Virus record (IMG/VR): IMGVR_UViG_3300031760_000008
Span: 76,337-140,336 of that record
Length of the DNA stretch: 64,000 bases
DNA from: a virus
Taxonomy: Duplodnaviria; Heunggongvirae; Uroviricota; Caudoviricetes
Reading direction: 5' to 3' (one strand)
Shown piece by piece: positions 31,078 to 41,320 of the stretch (its first letter is position 1; each line of letters begins with the position of its first letter). The notes beneath the pieces are model-generated. The model saw nothing but the letters and a program-made list of their open reading frames with translations, did not search any database and was not told the DNA's origin. The position numbers and the translations under genes were made by a program.

Positions 31078-31518
31078 TTATTCTTCAACTTTAACTTCTT
31101 CAACAACTTCAGGTGCAGGTATTGATTCTTGTTTTACATTTTGGGCTAATAATTTAAGATCTTTTAATAATTCTTGATTTTCTTTCTTATCAAACCATCC
31201 TTCATTTAATCCATATACTGCACTTTCTATTAACATATTTATTTCTGCAGGTGTTATTTTAATTCCTTTACTTTGTAATATTTCTGATACTTGAACTGTA
31301 GCTTTTTCTAATTTTTCTTTTCCACTTAAATCGGTATATACTTGTTCAACAAATTTAACGGCATCTGTAACAACTGCTTTAGCTGTTTCATTATTCACTT
31401 TTTCTTCATATACTTTTTTAAGTCTATTTCCTATATATGTAAATAATCCTGTTATAAATGTTGCAAGTACTGGTAATAATATTTGTATAAATTGATTTAA
31501 TATTTCATTTTGTTCCAT
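31078..31518 (-). CDS. Holin, LL-H family
   Basis: One N-terminal TM helix, then AVKFVEQVY..GKEKLEKA..ITPAEINMLIESAV. Confidence 0.8.
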   Translation of the reverse strand: MEQNEILNQFIQILLPVLATFITGLFTYIGNRLKKVYEEKVNNETAKAVVTDAVKFVEQVYTDLSGKEKLEKATVQVSEILQSKGIKITPAEINMLIESAVYGLNEGWFDKKENQELLKDLKLLAQNVKQESIPAPEVVEEVKVEE

Positions 31519-32723: not shown

Positions 32724-33005
32724 TTATTCAGCTATTCCTTTACCTTGCATTAATCTTTTTCTTTTTTGTTTTTTAAGTCTATAAGCTTCTAAAACTTGCA
32801 TATTTTCTGAATAATGTTCTAATACTTTTATTAAATTCCAAATAACATCCATTTGAGTTAATTGAGCTGTAACAGGTAAATCTGGATTTTCATGAATCTG
32901 TACAGCTCTTTTTTGTAAGTCTGAAACAACACTGTCTATTATTTCTTTTTTATAATCTCTATCATTATCTTTCTTCATCTTCCCATTCTCCATATAAAGC
33001 ATCAT
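32724..33005 (-). CDS. Hypothetical protein
   Basis: 93-aa ORF overlapping the end of the HNH gene. Confidence 0.5.
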   Translation of the reverse strand: MMLYMENGKMKKDNDRDYKKEIIDSVVSDLQKRAVQIHENPDLPVTAQLTQMDVIWNLIKVLEHYSENMQVLEAYRLKKQKRKRLMQGKGIAE

Positions 33006-33471
33006 CTATTAACTGTTGTGTTTCTCTCTTTTGTTTTGCTCTATTAAATTTTTCTTTTCTTTTTTCAGTATCTAAATCTAAAGGAGATAAAGCAGTCATT
33101 GCAAGAATTTCTTGTATATCTTCAGGAGATAATATATCTTCAGGTCTAATATCTATTCCATTTTGTCTAGCTCTTAAAACAGATGCTTTATAATTTTGCA
33201 TTGCTTGATTCACTAGTTGTTTTTCTCGTTCCGGTAAAGAATGAAGCCATTTATGATTATATCCTCTAACAATAGCTCCATTCTCAACAGTAGCTTTTCC
33301 TCCTAGATGTTTTTCATGAATATGGTGATAAGTTAACATATCATCATATTTAGAATATCCTTTTATTTTCTTTCGTTTACTAGGAGGAATATATCTTAAA
33401 CCTAACTTCTCTATAAAACAGATTTTACCAAAGAGTTTTTCTAATTCACGTCTAGCTTCATTATTGTTCAT
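32965..33471 (-). CDS. HNH endonuclease-like protein
   Basis: LTYHHIHEKHLGGKATVENGAIVRGYNHKWLH. Confidence 0.7.
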   Translation of the reverse strand: MNNNEARRELEKLFGKICFIEKLGLRYIPPSKRKKIKGYSKYDDMLTYHHIHEKHLGGKATVENGAIVRGYNHKWLHSLPEREKQLVNQAMQNYKASVLRARQNGIDIRPEDILSPEDIQEILAMTALSPLDLDTEKRKEKFNRAKQKRETQQLIDDALYGEWEDEER

Positions 33472-33493: not shown

Positions 33494-35908
33494 TTAACCG
33501 TTATATACTATTCTAACCTTTCCTTGATCATTCACAGTAGACATTACTACTCCAAATTTTTCAATTCTATTATTAGTATAATCAACAGTTCCATCAGGAA
33601 GTGCTTTAACTATTTGACCAGGAGTTAAATAAGGATTATTTGTTTTAACCCAAATTTTACCTACCATACCTACAATACATTTTTGATCTTCTTCTAAATC
33701 TTTTCCTCCAAGTAATACACCTTCTGTATTTGAACATATACCTACTATAGCATCAAGATCTGACATCATTTCTACTTTATGAACTAATCCATCTTCTCTT
33801 ATACATACTATATCTCCTGGCTCTATTATTTCTTCTGGTAATTTTTCAAATACTTCAGCATAGTCATTATATACAGCATTATAAACTTTAGATCCTGTAA
33901 TTGTTCCTGTTGTAGTCCAATTTCCAGTACCTGTTAATGTTCCATTAACTGTTGTATTCCCTAAAGATGTTGTTCCTGCATATAAATTCTTTTCACCTGA
34001 ACTTCCTACATAGAAGTTACAGTTTGTTCTTAAATTTGTAGCGTTATTATCTTTAGTTATTGTTACATCTCCACCAGTTCCTCTAGAAAATGTTACAACA
34101 CCATTTGAAGTTTTTAATCCATTACCTGTTATTAATCCAGTTGCTGTTATAGTACTATTAGTTGCTAAAGCTCCATCTAAATTTAATATTTTTTGATTAT
34201 CAGTTTTGTATAAACTAACATCCATAGCACTATTATCATCTTTCCAATAAATAATTGGATTAACAGATGTGCTTGCGTTATATAATTCTAATTTACCACT
34301 ATTATATAATTTAGAATATGATGTATTAGCAGTATTTCTTGTTAGATAATATCCAGCATCAGCTGTATTATTTATTTCATTAATAGCTCCAGGTGTAAAT
34401 ATTGTTTTTATAGATGCATCAGCATTTGCTATTTGCCATTCACTATTTTTTAACCAAGTTTTCTCTTGTCCAAATGTTGTTGTAGATCCTAAATATAATG
34501 TAGTTGTAGCTCTAACATCATTTAAGAAATCTGATTTAGGACTTATTTTCATAAAGCTTACATTATCTTGTAATAATGATACTACTTGATTAGAATTATT
34601 ATATTGCCATATAGCCTTTCCTACAGTGAATTTAGCTGTATTAGCATCTGTGAATGTAAAATTAAATGCTAAATTAGGAGCATTTGGATCTGTTATTTTA
34701 ACATTATTATTATCTAAAGTTAATTTAGGTGAATTTGTATTTTCAGTAGATAATGATATTTCATTATCTCCTTCTATTGTAACTGGTCCTTCTGCATCAA
34801 TACATATTCCACCATTATTGTGAATATGTAATTTATTATCAGTTTCTGATTCGTAAATTTCTCCTTTTCCTATACTCCATTTATAAGTATTACCTTCAAC
34901 ATCAATATTTATATCTCTATCAGAATTATCAATATAATAAATATTGCCAGTATCACCCCAGTTAGTTTTAGGATCTTGATTTATAAAATTAGTAATATAT
35001 TCTATATCTTTATCATCTATAACACCATCATGATTTACATCAGATAATATTTTTTCTAAGTCTGTAGGAGTAGCAGTACCATCAACAAAAGTTTGGATTA
35101 TTCTTAAATCTTCAGCATCAATAACTCCATCTCTATTAACATCTCCATAAAATTGTAATAGATTATTATTTACTGTAGGATCTTTAATAGTTATATGAGA
35201 ACCATTTTCATCCACATTCATAATAATTCCAGGATTACTATTTTCTCTATTATCAGCTATTGTAATAGGTCCATATACAATATCTCCTTCTTTAGAAAAA
35301 TACCAATCAGGAATTTTATAAATATATTCTTGAAGATTTAATCTTCTTATATCTGGATGTTTTGGATCTAAAAATTTACATAGAATATCTTCTGCCCATA
35401 TTCTTCCATATTTATCTTCGTCTTCTTCTAAATTAGAAAAATTAGTTCCATCCCATTCTACTGAACCTAAATATAATATATCTGGATCTGTTACAGGATC
35501 TGGTTTCTCATCAAAATATGTTAGATATACTCCTTTAAAAGTTCTTAAAGAACCATATACTAAATCACCTAAAACATTTCTAGAGCTATCTCTAGCTAGT
35601 TTGAATGCTAAATACCATTTTCCTATTCCATCTGGAGCTCCTATTGTAATAGAATTCTCCATAATAAGATCCATACCATTAATTGAACATTGACCTTTTA
35701 ATACTCTTATCAAAGGTTCTCCTGTAGATATATCACTTATTAAACTCAATTCAAAAGAAGGTTTAACTATACAGAAGTTCTTACTTGATACTCTAGTTAC
35801 AAATCTAGCCATATTAAATTCAAGATTCAATTTACCGTCATCTTGTTGGTTTGAACCAGGATAACATGTAATATCTTCTCCATTGTAATTTACTATTGGA
35901 TGAGCCAT
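33494..35908 (-). CDS. Tail/baseplate protein with an internal dockerin and a C-terminal Peptidase_G2/IMC-like domain
   Basis: GDVNRDGVIDAED...SDVNHDGVIDDKD duplicated Ca-binding loops; C-terminal NDYAEVFE..IEPGDIV..VGMVGKIWV; behind a late motif. Confidence 0.7.
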   Translation of the reverse strand: MAHPIVNYNGEDITCYPGSNQQDDGKLNLEFNMARFVTRVSSKNFCIVKPSFELSLISDISTGEPLIRVLKGQCSINGMDLIMENSITIGAPDGIGKWYLAFKLARDSSRNVLGDLVYGSLRTFKGVYLTYFDEKPDPVTDPDILYLGSVEWDGTNFSNLEEDEDKYGRIWAEDILCKFLDPKHPDIRRLNLQEYIYKIPDWYFSKEGDIVYGPITIADNRENSNPGIIMNVDENGSHITIKDPTVNNNLLQFYGDVNRDGVIDAEDLRIIQTFVDGTATPTDLEKILSDVNHDGVIDDKDIEYITNFINQDPKTNWGDTGNIYYIDNSDRDINIDVEGNTYKWSIGKGEIYESETDNKLHIHNNGGICIDAEGPVTIEGDNEISLSTENTNSPKLTLDNNNVKITDPNAPNLAFNFTFTDANTAKFTVGKAIWQYNNSNQVVSLLQDNVSFMKISPKSDFLNDVRATTTLYLGSTTTFGQEKTWLKNSEWQIANADASIKTIFTPGAINEINNTADAGYYLTRNTANTSYSKLYNSGKLELYNASTSVNPIIYWKDDNSAMDVSLYKTDNQKILNLDGALATNSTITATGLITGNGLKTSNGVVTFSRGTGGDVTITKDNNATNLRTNCNFYVGSSGEKNLYAGTTSLGNTTVNGTLTGTGNWTTTGTITGSKVYNAVYNDYAEVFEKLPEEIIEPGDIVCIREDGLVHKVEMMSDLDAIVGICSNTEGVLLGGKDLEEDQKCIVGMVGKIWVKTNNPYLTPGQIVKALPDGTVDYTNNRIEKFGVVMSTVNDQGKVRIVYNG

Positions 35909-36008: not shown

Positions 36009-38349
36009 CTATTTTAATAATATTACATTATCATATAAATATTTCATATAATTTCTGCCACCAGTTCCATCTTTAGCAGCTGTAACATATTCATCAGTTG
36101 TTGTAAATGATGTTATAATCTGATTTTGATAATCAAATTTAACTTTTACTAAATCATTATGAACAGGAGCATAATTATTAACTTGATTTTTAGTTTCTAC
36201 AATTCTTTTAAAAATATTATCATAAGTATATTGAGATTGTAGAATAATAGTAGTTTTAGCTATAGCTTTATCAGGTACACCACCTGTTACTGCATAAGTA
36301 TTTTTTGCATTATTAACAGCATCTCTTACAGTATTATAATGAGCTGCCATTATAAAATCTCCTTGTGATACTGAATAACTAGGTACTACTTTTATTATAG
36401 TTACTTTATCTGACCATTCACTCCATCCATATTCTGTATCGGCTGTAGCATTATAAGGCTTTTTAACTCTTACTCTCATTATATAAGTAGATGTTTTGGT
36501 TATATTATTAGCATTTGGCCATATTATAATTTTCTTTTGATATGTTAAATCATTTACTAAAGATGAAAATGTATAATTTTGACTTATCAATGTAGCTCCC
36601 GAACTTGTACCATCTGTATTTGCAAATTTATAAACTTTTCCATTTATATCAAATTCTATATTATCATATTTATAAGTTCCTGTTACAGAATCTTTATCAG
36701 GATCAGTAGGAAGTTGAAAACAAATTCTAAAATCATCATTTATCCAATTGCTATTATTGATAGGATATGTTATAACAGGTTTATTTAATCTATTCATAAC
36801 AATAATAAAAGGTATTTTTTCTATTGTACCATTATAATACCAGAAATTAGCTTGAGTTTCTGTATCATTTTTAAAATATGGTGTAATATCTATATAAGTT
36901 AATAAACCATTTGCAGGTATATCATTCTTTGGAATAACATAATTCTTATTTGATGTGTAATATGTTTTAACCACAGTTCCTGCATTGTTATATAATCTTA
37001 TTCTATATCCCTGAGTATATCCAGCTTGAGCTTGTGTAGTATCATAAGACCATGAAACTGTAACATCAGTTAGTTTTGATTTAGCTATTACTTTAGATTT
37101 GGGTATATTATTTCCTGAACTGTCCTTATATGAAACGTTATTATTAACTATACCAATTCTAGGTCTATAATAAACAGTAAATGTAATAGTAGGTTTATTT
37201 GTAGATTCATAAATGGTTGTACTTGTATTAAGTTTTGTACTCCATCTTTCCATTTGTAAAATTATACTCTGACCATCATTAGCTTTTGGAACTAAAGATC
37301 GCATTTCTGCAGCAGTTCTTGACCAAGAAGTTATATTTCCTAATGATGTCCAGCCAGTATAATCTGCAGAACCTCTTTTTATTCTATATCTTGTTACAAA
37401 ATCATTTTCATAAGCTGACCATGCTCTATTATTAGTACCAGATATTGTAAATTTATTATCTTGATTAGCATTTTGTGAAGTTCTTGTAGCTGTAATAGAA
37501 TTATTTAAAGTTGGAATTCTATAGGTATAAATAACTAATCCTTGTCTAGGATCCCAATTATTAGGAGATAGAGCTTCTCCGACCCTTAGATACTAAAGTG
37601 ATTCTATATCTTTGACCATCAGAAAAACCTTTATCTGTTCCTAAATCATAATAATCCCAAACTCCTGATGAAGATCCTGTAACTCTTCTTAATACAGGTT
37701 CCCATCTAACTCCCCATTGTGTAGCATTATAATCATGAATAGCTAATGTTATAGGACAATTTGAATTTGAACCCGAATTATAACTATAATGCACTCCCCA
37801 TTGTTTTCCAGATCCAGTTGTAGAAGTAGATTGTACTTTTGCTATTCTTGTATAATCATCAGGATTTAACCATATAGAAGAAGGAGTATATGGATTATAT
37901 GCAGGATAATATACTGTATCTGACCAAGTTCCATGATATGGACAACTAGTTCTACCACCAATATCAGTAGCTCTAGAACCGGATCCAGCTGTACAATTAT
38001 TAGACTCACCTGTAGGATTTGCATATGTTCCTTGATGACACCATATATCTATAGTAACACCACTAGCTCCTGAAGAATTATCGTTATATCTATCAAATTC
38101 AATTGATCCACTAGTATCACTATAGTTACCACCAACAAGGTAACCGATAGTTGAAGCATTATCTACTGTTACTTTAATACCTAAAGCATTAGAAGAACCA
38201 TAATAAGCTCCTGAACCCAGACTATTATAAAAATCAAATTTATAATGCACATAAGGAGTTTTATCACTAGCTCTAGTAGCAGAATAACTACATGTTAGAT
38301 ACATAGTAGGGCGCCAGTGCCATGATTTGTTAGAAAATAGATCAGCCAT
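36009..38349 (-). pseudogene. Minor tail protein split by a one-base frameshift (ORFs 37561..38349 and 36009..37304 plus the open frame between)
   Basis: The frame of 36009..37304 stays open up to 37592 and reads EALSPNNWDPRQGLVIYTYRIPTL..GTNNRAWSAYENDFVTRY, which aligns with LTLYTYKLPDI..STNNRKWSSLENQFKTYY of paralog 28658..30982; removing one base gives 779 aa versus 774 aa. Confidence 0.8.
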
Positions 38350-38365: not shown

Positions 38366-41320
38366 TTATATTTTTAGTATGAATACTTGTAAATCATTAA
38401 TATCATAAACAACCGATGTATTAACTCTAATAGTATTATTATCAATAATACTATTATCTATATATAATTGTTCTCCAGTAGTAGAATTTCTAAACTGAAC
38501 TATTATATTAGAAGAATTTAAATTATGAGTTACAGTAAATGTAGTACTTATATTATCTCCTAAAGTAGTAGTGTATGATGATATAGCTCTATCATCTACA
38601 TATTTTTTAGTAGCTGGATGATAATCTTGAGTTGGATTATATGAACCAGTTGTATATGAATCTGCTTTCAAGAAAGATCCTTCAGATGATGTTGAGTAAC
38701 TACTTGATACATTATCTACAACAAAGGTACTACCCTCACTTCTAAATGTAATAGAAAAGTAATATTTAATCATATTAAGTGTACTTGCAGGTTGGTTTTG
38801 ATTAATTACATTCCAATGTTCATGTAATCCTAAAACTCGCCATGTTAAACTTTGAGCAGTAGGATTAGGTAAAGTTGAGTTTATACAGAATATATTAAAT
38901 TTATTATCTGTATTATTTTCTGCAAATATATAAATTGGTTTAGTATTTCTATTAGGTATAAATGAATTTAATAAATTAATAAAATCAGTTAATTCATCAG
39001 AACTCATATTATTACTATATCTTAAAACTTCATATGGTAAATTTGTATTAGCTGTTATTCTTATTCTATCATTTGTATTAGTAACAGTTATACCTTCACC
39101 GAAATCTAATATATGTCTATATGGAACTAAAGATCCAAATGCATAAACATCATGGCCTATATTGTTAAATATATTATCATAACCAGTTTGAGTTATTCCT
39201 AATTTTAATCCAAAATTTGAAGAACCATCTGATGATACAGCTGAACTTGTTCCTAATATCTCAACATCTCCACCATTATCAGAATTAATAGAGAAAGCAG
39301 ATGTTAGATTAGATACTGAAGCTCCTTCTATTATACCATTTCCAGATGTAACAACTATCTTATTTTGAGGTATTGTATTACCTATTGTATAATTAATATA
39401 ATTTGTATCTAAAGCACCTACATCAGAAGCTTGTAATGTTACAGCTCCTGTATTTCCATTAACACTTAATACATTATCATTAGTATCAATTTTATTCCAA
39501 GTACCATCATAATATAAACACCAATCTCCTACTTGGAACAATTTATTATTAAATGTAGCTTCTGTATCAGCTATCCAGAACTGACCTTCCATAGGATTGT
39601 TACTTGGAGCTCCTGTTTGAGGATTCCAATTACCTTTAGGTACTAATCCTGTTTGAGAAGCAGGTAATTGAGAAGGTGTTAATTTACCATCTTGACCTAA
39701 AGTAGCTACGGTTACACCTAAATCAGAACTTTGAACAATATTACTTCCAGGATCTAATGTTAAATTAATACTTGCTTGAGTTGCAGAAGTATCTATATCT
39801 ACAATACCACTAGCTTCTCCTGTTACTATTAATCTTATAGGATGATCTAAAGCTGAAGATGTTTGAGCGTTACCTGGTAAATCACCATTTGCATTAACAG
39901 CTAAAGCTTTTCCTTCAGTAGGTATTTGACTTAATATATTATTTGCAGAAGTATTTATAGAAACATTTCCACTTAAATCTGTACTAACTGATCCTGTTAT
40001 ATCTCCAGTTAAACTAATACTAATTGCATTTGCTAAAGCATTTGTAGAAGCTGATGTTCCTGGTAATATTAGATCATTATTTACTTTTAAAGGTTTTCCT
40101 GCTGTAGGAATATCAGTAGATGCTACAGAAGCTATTTTATTATCTACCTGATTTTTATTATAATAATTTTCAGGATCTACAGTTGAAATAGCATCTATTT
40201 GATCTTGTAAATCAACCATAGTAGCTTCATAATCTGTATGATGATGTTTTGAACCATCTATTTCTAAATTAACTGTAGTATCAGTTAATTTATTAACAAG
40301 AGCACTTCCTGAAGCCCCTCCAGCAAAAGTTAATGTAAATGGATTTGCAGTCATTCTAAATGATCTAGATTGAGAATTATAATTTACAGTTATACCTTCA
40401 GCTGTCATTCTTGAGAATACATCATTTACTTGAACCAATGCTTGATCTCTAGCAGCTGAGTTAAAATCTATAATATCATTAGCCACATGACTATGACCTA
40501 CAAGAGATATATCATCTAATGTCATACCATTAATTCTTTTAACATTAATATCTAAAGGACTTGGTAATGATGGATCTTGTAATTTAGAATATATATCCTG
40601 TGGAGTTATAACTTTTATAGCAGATACATCTAAGTTTCCTTCATGAAATACTTCATATATATGATCATCTTTAGGATACTCAGAAGGATCTTCCTCTGGT
40701 ATTTCGGAATAATCGACAAACATTTGATTATTTTTATTATGAAATTCTGATCTTAAATATGATTTACCATTATCACCTAATAATAATTCATCATTAGAAC
40801 TCATTTTACCATTTGGTAATAATCTAATACCTCCTCCTAAAAAAGAAGATATTATCATATTATCATTAGATTCTTCTATATAAATCTTACCTTTGATAAT
40901 ACGATTTTTATCACGAATAACAACAGATCCATCTTTTAATAAACCATTATTATCTAAAACAGTATATGGTTGATTTCCATTATATACATCAGTTATATTT
41001 CTATTGTCATCATATACATATGCACTTGGATAACTCGTATCTGTATATAAAGAAACCCATTTATTATTCCATAGCCATAATGAGTTATCTTCCCAGCAAT
41101 AATAAGTTGTTCCATAAGCAGGTGTCATATAATAGAATAAATCATTTAAAGTATTAACTCCGGTATAACTATAAGTTACTCTTCTACTATTTGATTCATC
41201 ATAATATAATCTTTGTGTATCTAAGCACATATACATATTGCCTTGTTTTTTATTGGTAGTTAATAAATCAAATTCGTTCATTCTATATATTCTATTTATT
41301 TGTGGAGTTATCACTGCCAT
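38366..41320 (-). CDS. Large tail/baseplate structural protein
   Basis: PKGNWNP..GQFWIA..GDWCLY..WNKID..VLSVNGNTGAVTL tail-type motif; repeated ISLTGDITGS; C-terminal HNLNS; late motif upstream. Confidence 0.6.
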   Translation of the reverse strand: MAVITPQINRIYRMNEFDLLTTNKKQGNMYMCLDTQRLYYDESNSRRVTYSYTGVNTLNDLFYYMTPAYGTTYYCWEDNSLWLWNNKWVSLYTDTSYPSAYVYDDNRNITDVYNGNQPYTVLDNNGLLKDGSVVIRDKNRIIKGKIYIEESNDNMIISSFLGGGIRLLPNGKMSSNDELLLGDNGKSYLRSEFHNKNNQMFVDYSEIPEEDPSEYPKDDHIYEVFHEGNLDVSAIKVITPQDIYSKLQDPSLPSPLDINVKRINGMTLDDISLVGHSHVANDIIDFNSAARDQALVQVNDVFSRMTAEGITVNYNSQSRSFRMTANPFTLTFAGGASGSALVNKLTDTTVNLEIDGSKHHHTDYEATMVDLQDQIDAISTVDPENYYNKNQVDNKIASVASTDIPTAGKPLKVNNDLILPGTSASTNALANAISISLTGDITGSVSTDLSGNVSINTSANNILSQIPTEGKALAVNANGDLPGNAQTSSALDHPIRLIVTGEASGIVDIDTSATQASINLTLDPGSNIVQSSDLGVTVATLGQDGKLTPSQLPASQTGLVPKGNWNPQTGAPSNNPMEGQFWIADTEATFNNKLFQVGDWCLYYDGTWNKIDTNDNVLSVNGNTGAVTLQASDVGALDTNYINYTIGNTIPQNKIVVTSGNGIIEGASVSNLTSAFSINSDNGGDVEILGTSSAVSSDGSSNFGLKLGITQTGYDNIFNNIGHDVYAFGSLVPYRHILDFGEGITVTNTNDRIRITANTNLPYEVLRYSNNMSSDELTDFINLLNSFIPNRNTKPIYIFAENNTDNKFNIFCINSTLPNPTAQSLTWRVLGLHEHWNVINQNQPASTLNMIKYYFSITFRSEGSTFVVDNVSSSYSTSSEGSFLKADSYTTGSYNPTQDYHPATKKYVDDRAISSYTTTLGDNISTTFTVTHNLNSSNIIVQFRNSTTGEQLYIDNSIIDNNTIRVNTSVVYDINDLQVFILKI

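Follow-up and report, generated by a model that had tools for sequence, protein, structure and literature searches.

A type I dockerin module, by sequence and predicted fold, inserted in the tail fibre of a large ruminant-gut phage

In this study we describe a dockerin module in the tail fibre of an uncultured phage. The window that we analysed is a stretch of 64,000 nucleotides (positions 76,337 to 140,336 of the IMG/VR record IMGVR_UViG_3300031760_000008), and one of its genes (P0001; 33494..35908 on the minus strand, stop codon included) encodes a tail fibre or appendage protein of 804 amino acids (aa). Between a conserved N-terminal anchor and a variable shaft this protein carries a module which, by sequence and predicted fold, is a genuine dockerin. 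In bacteria, dockerins serve as plugs in the assembly of cellulosomes and of a small number of other surface complexes, and to our knowledge their only documented function is the Ca-dependent binding of cohesins. The phage module is under purifying selection, with all of its Ca ligands kept, and we read it best as a device for accessory, cohesin-mediated and Ca-dependent adhesion, a reading to which we would give slightly less than an even chance.

The module (residues 254-310; 34979..35149, on the minus strand like all further features of the fibre gene) is recognized by the Pfam model Dockerin_1 (PF00404) over its full length, from model position 1 to 57 of 57 and with no net indel. It scored 36.3 bits in the protein translated from the 804-aa open reading frame (ORF) (E 6.6e-9; curated gathering cut-off, GA, 22.9) and 40.8 bits in a six-frame search of the whole record. 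Its anatomy is that of tandem 22-residue segments, each made of a 12-residue Ca loop with ligands at positions 1, 3, 5, 9 and 12 and of a helix that follows it. The first residues of the two loops, D256 and D290, are separated by 34 residues, and the loop coordinates were verified by translation (loop 1, residues 256-267, D-V-N-R-D-G-V-I-D-A-E-D, 35108..35143; loop 2, residues 290-301, D-V-N-H-D-G-V-I-D-D-K-D, 35006..35041). In both, positions 1, 3, 5 and 9 are Asp or Asn, and position 12 is Asp. The two DxNxDGxIDxxD repeats with dockerin-like spacing, which the original prediction had read from the letters alone, thus stand up to a profile search.

Predicted structure points the same way. Residues 249-329, folded alone with 32 orthologues by AlphaFold2 (AF2), gave a model of three helices (265-276, 283-289 and 299-310) with a predicted local distance difference test score (pLDDT) of 94.3 and a predicted template modelling score (pTM) of 0.83. 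When this model was compared with the PDB by Foldseek, the best 38 matches were all dockerins, 30 dockerins had a probability of 1.0, and 1OHZ_B superimposed with a template modelling score (TM) of 0.92 and a root-mean-square deviation of 0.9 Å over 55 residues. As far as profile, loop anatomy and predicted fold can tell, the module has everything that marks the type I dockerin family, while its binding to a cohesin is a prediction. The context is atypical for a dockerin, being that of an internal insert in a virion protein with no signal peptide. This belongs to the setting and is no defining trait of the fold family.

The same loops could in principle belong to a Ca sensor of the EF-hand type, which would change the conformation of the fibre in response to Ca and need no protein partner. 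A single-sequence phmmer search against the PDB did place EF-hand pairs of troponin C slightly above dockerins (E 3e-6 versus 5e-5), and the Pfam model EF-hand_7 matched the module weakly (20.9 bits, GA 30), the remaining EF-hand models more weakly still. However, all EF-hand models of Pfam stayed under their own cut-offs whereas Dockerin_1 lies 13 bits over its own; position 12 of both loops is the Asp of dockerins and not the Glu of EF-hands; the spacing of 34 residues fits the dockerin model ungapped, whereas the alignment with troponin C requires inserts; and EF-hand proteins reached the module model with a TM of at most 0.27 and a probability of at most 0.06. We consider a Ca sensor very improbable. 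An assignment to the EF-hand pair (PF13499 and relatives) was rejected on the sub-threshold profiles, the Asp at loop position 12 and the low TM.

The protein around the module is a tail fibre or appendage, in agreement with the original prediction, which had placed the dockerin inside an 804-aa tail protein. Its translation matches Dockerin_1 and Peptidase_G2, the latter in a C-terminal intramolecular chaperone (IMC) or autoproteolytic domain of the phi29 gp12 type (residues 657-804; 33497..33940), where PF11962 (Peptidase_G2/IMC) scored 35.9 bits at residues 657-735 against a cut-off of 25. In the full-length AF2 model (pLDDT 79) this domain matched the C-terminal fragments of phi29 gp12, 3GQH_A and 3SUC, with a Foldseek probability of 1.00 (3GQH_A, TM(target) 0.53). 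The matches in BFVD were phage fibre or appendage proteins, among them ‘Preneck appendage protein’ and ‘Peptidase G2 IMC’ proteins. A putative cleavage motif, N-D-Y-A-E, starts at residue 681; its E685 is invariant, but some orthologues, P0019 among them, have Gly in place of the Asp. P0019 itself comes from a contig whose length, 418,344 bp, is about double that of a normal genome of the family; this contig may consist of two head-to-tail copies or be joined to other DNA.

At the other end, the N-terminal domain (residues 1-245; 35174..35908) probably attaches the fibre to the baseplate. It is a conserved anchor with about 60% identity even to homologues of 650-735 aa that differ elsewhere, and in homologues of about 650 aa the shaft is partly deleted. 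The usual pattern of fibres is a conserved domain for baseplate attachment followed by a variable receptor-binding part, and an anchor that stays about 60% identical while the rest differs or shortens argues for this layout here as well. The shaft (residues 336-655; 33944..34903) is the variable part and likely carries receptor specificity; AF2 renders this beta-rich region mostly as short strands with pLDDT 80-93. No match to the anchor was found in Pfam, PHROG or the PDB, and anchor and shaft gave no structural relatives, since the Foldseek search with the whole model matched the C-terminal domain only. PHROGs held no family for the fibre, nor for the two other dockerin proteins of the record described below (638 and 728 aa), and a tblastn search with the whole protein found no relative in 50,697 GenBank phage records.

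Homologues of the fibre, 163 in number, were found on contigs of 196-242 kb. Alignments of 17 and of 40 of them were used to define the indel, 32 dockerin-bearing orthologues to assess conservation, and 117 N-terminal domains to build a tree. Residues 249-335 (34904..35164) constitute an inserted cassette of the dockerin and a conserved clasp or linker (G-D-T-G-N-I-Y-Y-I). The indel is clean: on both flanks the fibre aligns collinearly with orthologues of about 730 aa that have neither dockerin nor clasp, which bears out the earlier description of the dockerin as an insert. As orthologous fibres exist that do not have it, the insert is an add-on and dispensable for assembly. In the domain model a strand at 251-253 precedes the helices and another at 323-326 follows them; the two might pair as a clasp that joins the ends of the module, which is what one would expect if a loop had received the module. 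On the maximum-likelihood tree the presence of the dockerin required 3 changes, where shuffled labels required 37.7, and the hypothesis of one dockerin-bearing clade was not rejected (approximately unbiased test, p 0.38). Hence the insert has rarely been gained or lost, and once present it was kept through divergence to about 40% identity of the fibre.

Among the 32 orthologues the mean pairwise identity was 0.64 for the N-terminal anchor, 0.58 for the dockerin, 0.69 for the strand after the dockerin and 0.46 for the C-terminal chaperone, while the shaft was lowest of all parts with 0.40. The Ca ligand positions are at least 90% conserved, apart from one lineage whose loop 2 is degenerate. Asp is invariant at positions 1 and 12 of loop 1 and occurs at position 5 in 29 of the 32, and only D, N or T is found at positions 3 and 9. 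The two segments differ at the positions that make contacts in dockerins: segment 2 conserves E-K at positions 10-11 (27-30 of 32), Y15 and N18, whereas the equivalent positions of segment 1 vary freely. The exceptional lineage is that of P0086, P0088 and P0090, orthologues of about 850 aa in which the second Ca loop is degenerate (its first Asp is replaced and two residues are added) and the linker is longer.

The source record of 140.8 kb is estimated to be 69% complete. The phage is large and uncultured, has a genome of roughly 200 kb and occurs widely in the gut metagenomes of cattle and sheep: more than 13 studies, with at least 17 runs among them, contain the fibre gene. Parts of this gene are also matched, with no mismatch, by short contigs of three metatranscriptome libraries; these libraries may contain DNA, so the matches are not proof of transcription. 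Two other proteins of the record, both encoded outside the window, carry dockerins as well. One, of 638 aa, has four Dockerin_1 matches (90.5 bits; L004:124-2040, minus strand; G000:C1, about 22.9-24.8 kb). The other, of 728 aa, has a degenerate dockerin of 16.5 bits, for which the orthologues in related phages score 43-53 bits (L006:655-2841, minus strand; G000:C1, about 15.4-17.6 kb). It may be a baseplate protein, as its N-terminal motif is baseplate-J-like, although it has no Pfam or PHROG match of that kind. All five related IMG/VR records that we inspected contain 5-8 dockerin matches in 2-4 proteins each, and these include phages in which the fibre has no insert.

A cohesin to go with these dockerins was not seen in the phages. 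The original prediction had recognized none in the window, and this holds for the whole 140.8-kb record and for five related records, three of which are complete with terminal repeats: in these six genomes PF00963 gave no match at E ≤0.1. A profile of the cohesins of the candidate host, which is introduced below, gave no match better than E 0.14 when it was run on the six-frame translation of the record and on the fibre loci (about 14 kb) of seven relatives. A cohesin partner encoded by the phage itself, which the original prediction had named as a finding that would speak for a purely structural role, is therefore unlikely as far as sequence-profile searches go, with no fold-level screen of all phage proteins, and an external partner is plausible. 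The dockerin alone, when searched against the GenBank phage records, had one match, in the Ruminococcus phage NatCom_28274 (PV036439.1; human faeces, Candidatus Heliusvirales), at the C-terminus of an unannotated hypothetical protein of 362 aa (coding sequence 538-1626). In the full-text literature that we searched, no phage fibre was described as carrying a dockerin. Two texts touch on the subject in passing: one mentions for coliphage HSE2 a structure-based likeness to a ‘dockerin CBM’ (carbohydrate-binding module; PMC5967307), the other a contig of a putative virus of anaerobic methanotrophic archaea that bears dockerin domains (ANME; PMC13452462).

If the partner is external, the question of the host arises. 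The original prediction had turned to the cellulosomes of Ruminococcus and Clostridium, and nothing that we found supports this link. When the dockerin alignment was run against the species genomes of GTDB, most matches were dockerins of Ruminococcus and Oscillospiraceae, with 35-45% identity. The composition of the phage tells otherwise: the record has 27% guanine plus cytosine (GC) and only 2 in-frame CGG codons in 38,742 codons of long ORFs, both of them at frame breaks 4-6 codons before the ORF end, whereas the Ruminococcus loci that we examined have 42-47% GC and 2-4 CGG per 1000 codons. Low GC and CGG avoidance argue against a Ruminococcus host and are compatible with a low-GC, small-genome lineage of ‘Bacilli’.

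The prediction of a host has produced one lead of this kind. A contig of 220,052 bp, CASPWD010000003.1 (L021; G006:C3), is binned in a GTDB species-representative metagenome-assembled genome (MAG) named ‘uncultured Bacilli bacterium’ and encodes a full-length orthologue of the fibre with 39% identity. The contig is a whole phage genome of about 220 kb from the same family, with the fibre and with dockerin proteins of 726 aa and 893 aa, and its presence in the MAG is either a clue to the host or a binning contaminant. The MAG itself is of 2.4 Mb and low GC. Its chromosome (25-30% GC) has 2 in-frame CGG in 74,826 codons against 294 off-frame, and loci from other genomes of the same candidate genus (about 28% GC where measured) have none in about 29,800 codons against 128 off-frame. 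That the host belongs to this candidate genus of ‘Bacilli’ or to a similar low-GC lineage seems to us about as probable as the opposite. A DNA comparison of 20 kb of the window with 27 genomes gave only short AT-rich matches and a holin-like stretch.

The candidate genus possesses what looks like a non-cellulosomal system for docking proteins on its surface. In 26 of its 27 genomes there is a protein of about 530-640 aa with a signal peptide, an N-terminal cohesin, a cadherin-like domain, one transmembrane helix and a charged cytoplasmic tail. Its gene (in G006:C7 at L106:1705-3450, minus strand; paralogues there are of about 630 aa) lies directly downstream of that of an SH3-domain protein which ends in a dockerin, in a cell-envelope locus with LytR-CpsA-Psr and a glycosyltransferase (gene pairs in L106, at G006:C7:4000-11000, in L101 and in L087-L093). 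ORFs of 2455-4720 aa in the same genus also bear cohesins or dockerins. The presence of both cohesin and dockerin genes suggests proteins that are hung on the surface by docking, and such a cohesin might be a possible socket for the phage dockerin. A complex predicted from the phage dockerin, two Ca ions and a candidate-host cohesin (residues 24-132 of its protein) had a score of 0.00 with no controls run and weighs neither way on binding.

On these grounds the adhesion that we propose might proceed as follows. The fibre would be a trimer whose C-terminal domain is cut off after folding, and a fibre on the virion would thus display three dockerins at a shoulder close to the baseplate. Together with the dockerins of other tail-associated proteins they might form accessory, Ca-dependent adhesion modules that plug into cohesins on the bacterial surface, either those of wall-spanning membrane-anchored proteins or those of the giant cohesin-bearing proteins of a low-GC host. 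Such docking would keep the baseplate at the cell surface or set its orientation there, and the variable shaft or tip would give the primary specificity. As the module adjoins the baseplate-proximal anchor and not the distal tip, a primary role in receptor binding is less likely than an accessory one. The larger claim, that a clade of ruminant-gut phages with genomes of about 200 kb has recruited the cohesin-dockerin system for adsorption and that the docking sockets of the host serve as a proteinaceous phage receptor, is possible but in our eyes rather doubtful.

Several observations weigh against this proposal. The host lead is weak: the co-binning concerns one of 401 genomes of the order (search with the N-terminal anchor), and 137 CRISPR (clustered regularly interspaced short palindromic repeats) spacers near Cas1 from six genomes of the candidate genus, when compared with the record and 16 loci of the family, gave as their best an unconvincing match of 26/30 nucleotides with 3 mismatches. 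The holin is 32-45% identical at the protein level, which is generic and uninformative on the host. The dockerins of the candidate genus differ at the contact positions, having K-I-N, T-A or S-A where the phage has a variable segment 1 and E-K in segment 2. A profile of the phage dockerins scores 35-46 bits on the candidate genus versus 54-63 bits on Ruminococcus genomes, with R. bromii best at 62.7 bits versus 46 for the candidate genus, although these scores do not discriminate the origin of a dockerin; the Ruminococcus genomes were preselected as best matches. Moreover, the dockerin sits near the anchor, away from the distal tip, the sublineage of P0086, P0088 and P0090 keeps the module despite its degenerate second loop, and non-cellulosomal dockerins with no known function are common.

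Some of these observations would suit a role inside the virion, in which the dockerin is a Ca-stabilized structural or assembly module that contacts a non-cohesin phage protein or the body of the fibre; it might stiffen the joint of anchor and shaft, stow the fibres or tie baseplate components together. The position beside the baseplate-proximal anchor fits such a role, as do the dockerins in other tail-associated proteins of the clade and the lineage that has retained a module with a degenerate loop 2. The best conserved parts, segment 2 (E-K at 10-11, Y15 and N18) and the clasp, with 0.64 and 0.69 versus 0.40 for the shaft, are likewise what a conserved internal partner would lead one to expect. 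However, orthologous fibres function with no insert, so that assembly does not need it; no cohesin-like sequence was found in the six genomes of the clade; the contacts of segment 1 vary freely, as they would on an exposed surface; and we know of no dockerin that binds anything except a cohesin. We regard an internal role as unlikely, though worth keeping in mind.

Cohesin-mediated adhesion need not be directed at the host either. The dockerins might bind free cohesins on the cellulosome or amylosome scaffoldins of fibre-attached bacteria, possibly non-hosts, and the phage would then hitch-hike in plant-fibre biofilms in which hosts are dense. An analogous retention has been proposed for phages with immunoglobulin-like capsid domains, which would hold them on mucus. 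The occurrence of the gene across bovine and sheep gut metagenomes would agree with this, and several dockerin proteins per phage would provide a multivalency that suits sticking of low specificity. The profile of phage dockerins scores best on dockerins of Ruminococcus bromii, R. albus and Ruminococcaceae (54-63 bits), and the nearest cellular tblastn matches are mostly from Ruminococcus or Oscillospiraceae, but the ranking by score is biased by the preselection. Cohesin-dockerin pairs are usually specific for species and type, the binding is predicted only, and a tail module that sticks to non-hosts could reduce infectivity. Hitch-hiking, together with the retention of virions that it would bring about, thus appears improbable to us, and accessory adhesion to the host surface is still the reading that we tentatively favour.

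If the dockerin on the virion does bind cohesins, phages would be exploiting a surface-assembly system of their host as a receptor or holdfast, and cohesin sockets would be a class of receptor that we did not find described in the papers searched. A single small recombinant domain would allow a direct test of this hypothesis. Such binding would also offer a simple protein-protein handle, in the form of cohesin pull-downs, for finding the hosts of abundant uncultured jumbo phages of the rumen. It would further be a natural case of the gain of a modular adhesion domain in which fibres with and without the insert can be compared, and a small Ca-switchable module that is tolerated inside a fibre might be of interest to phage engineers. 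If the module were purely structural, it would be a modest curiosity of domain shuffling.

The fibre gene lies in a late block rich in fibre genes, with a PHROG ‘tail protein’ at 38366-41320. The holin gene is located 2 kb downstream of it (31078-31518), and its proximity is a sign of ‘late’ expression in a positional sense only. Between the fibre gene and this lysis block there is a gene for an HNH-like endonuclease (32965-33471, minus strand) with weak Pfam and PHROG matches, which may be a mobile element at the boundary of modules. Directly upstream of the fibre gene (36009-38349, minus strand) two ORFs of 262 aa and 431 aa form one protein of 779 aa if CGG-A at residue 257 is read as a four-base glycine step.

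Among known systems, the closest to the phage module are the type I dockerins of cellulosomal enzymes, such as Xyn10B of C. thermocellum (1OHZ/2CCL), that of R. flavefaciens (5LXV) and a double dockerin (8X39), with which it has the loop-helix anatomy and the three-helix fold in common. Those dockerins are terminal on a secreted enzyme or scaffoldin, whereas that of the phage is internal to a fibre with no signal peptide, and no cognate cohesin is known for it. Its segments are also asymmetric, with conserved contacts in segment 2 and variable ones in segment 1, which makes a dual binding mode unlikely. For the fibre as a whole the nearest relative is the pre-neck appendage gp12 of phi29 (3GQH, 3SUC; Peptidase_G2 in MEROPS and Pfam), whose C-terminal part of about 150 residues is alike by hidden Markov model and fold. 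In gp12 this domain aids the folding of the trimer and is then cleaved, and the same logic is implied for the dockerin fibre. However, the fibre has no match to the beta-helix body of gp12, its anchor is unrelated, gp12 has no dockerin, and the Asp of the cleavage motif is not invariant among the fibre orthologues. The other phage dockerins that we noted are arranged differently, at the C-terminus of a protein in NatCom_28274 and as four copies in the 638-aa protein of the same genome, whereas the fibre has a single module between anchor and shaft whose presence and absence are documented among orthologues. The NagH-NagJ pair of C. perfringens (PDB 2OZN) is an example of a non-cellulosomal dockerin in protein-protein docking on a Gram-positive surface, and 2OZN_B matches the phage module weakly (probability 0.57). 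There the dockerin is part of a bacterial toxin or enzyme complex, and here it is a component of the virion.

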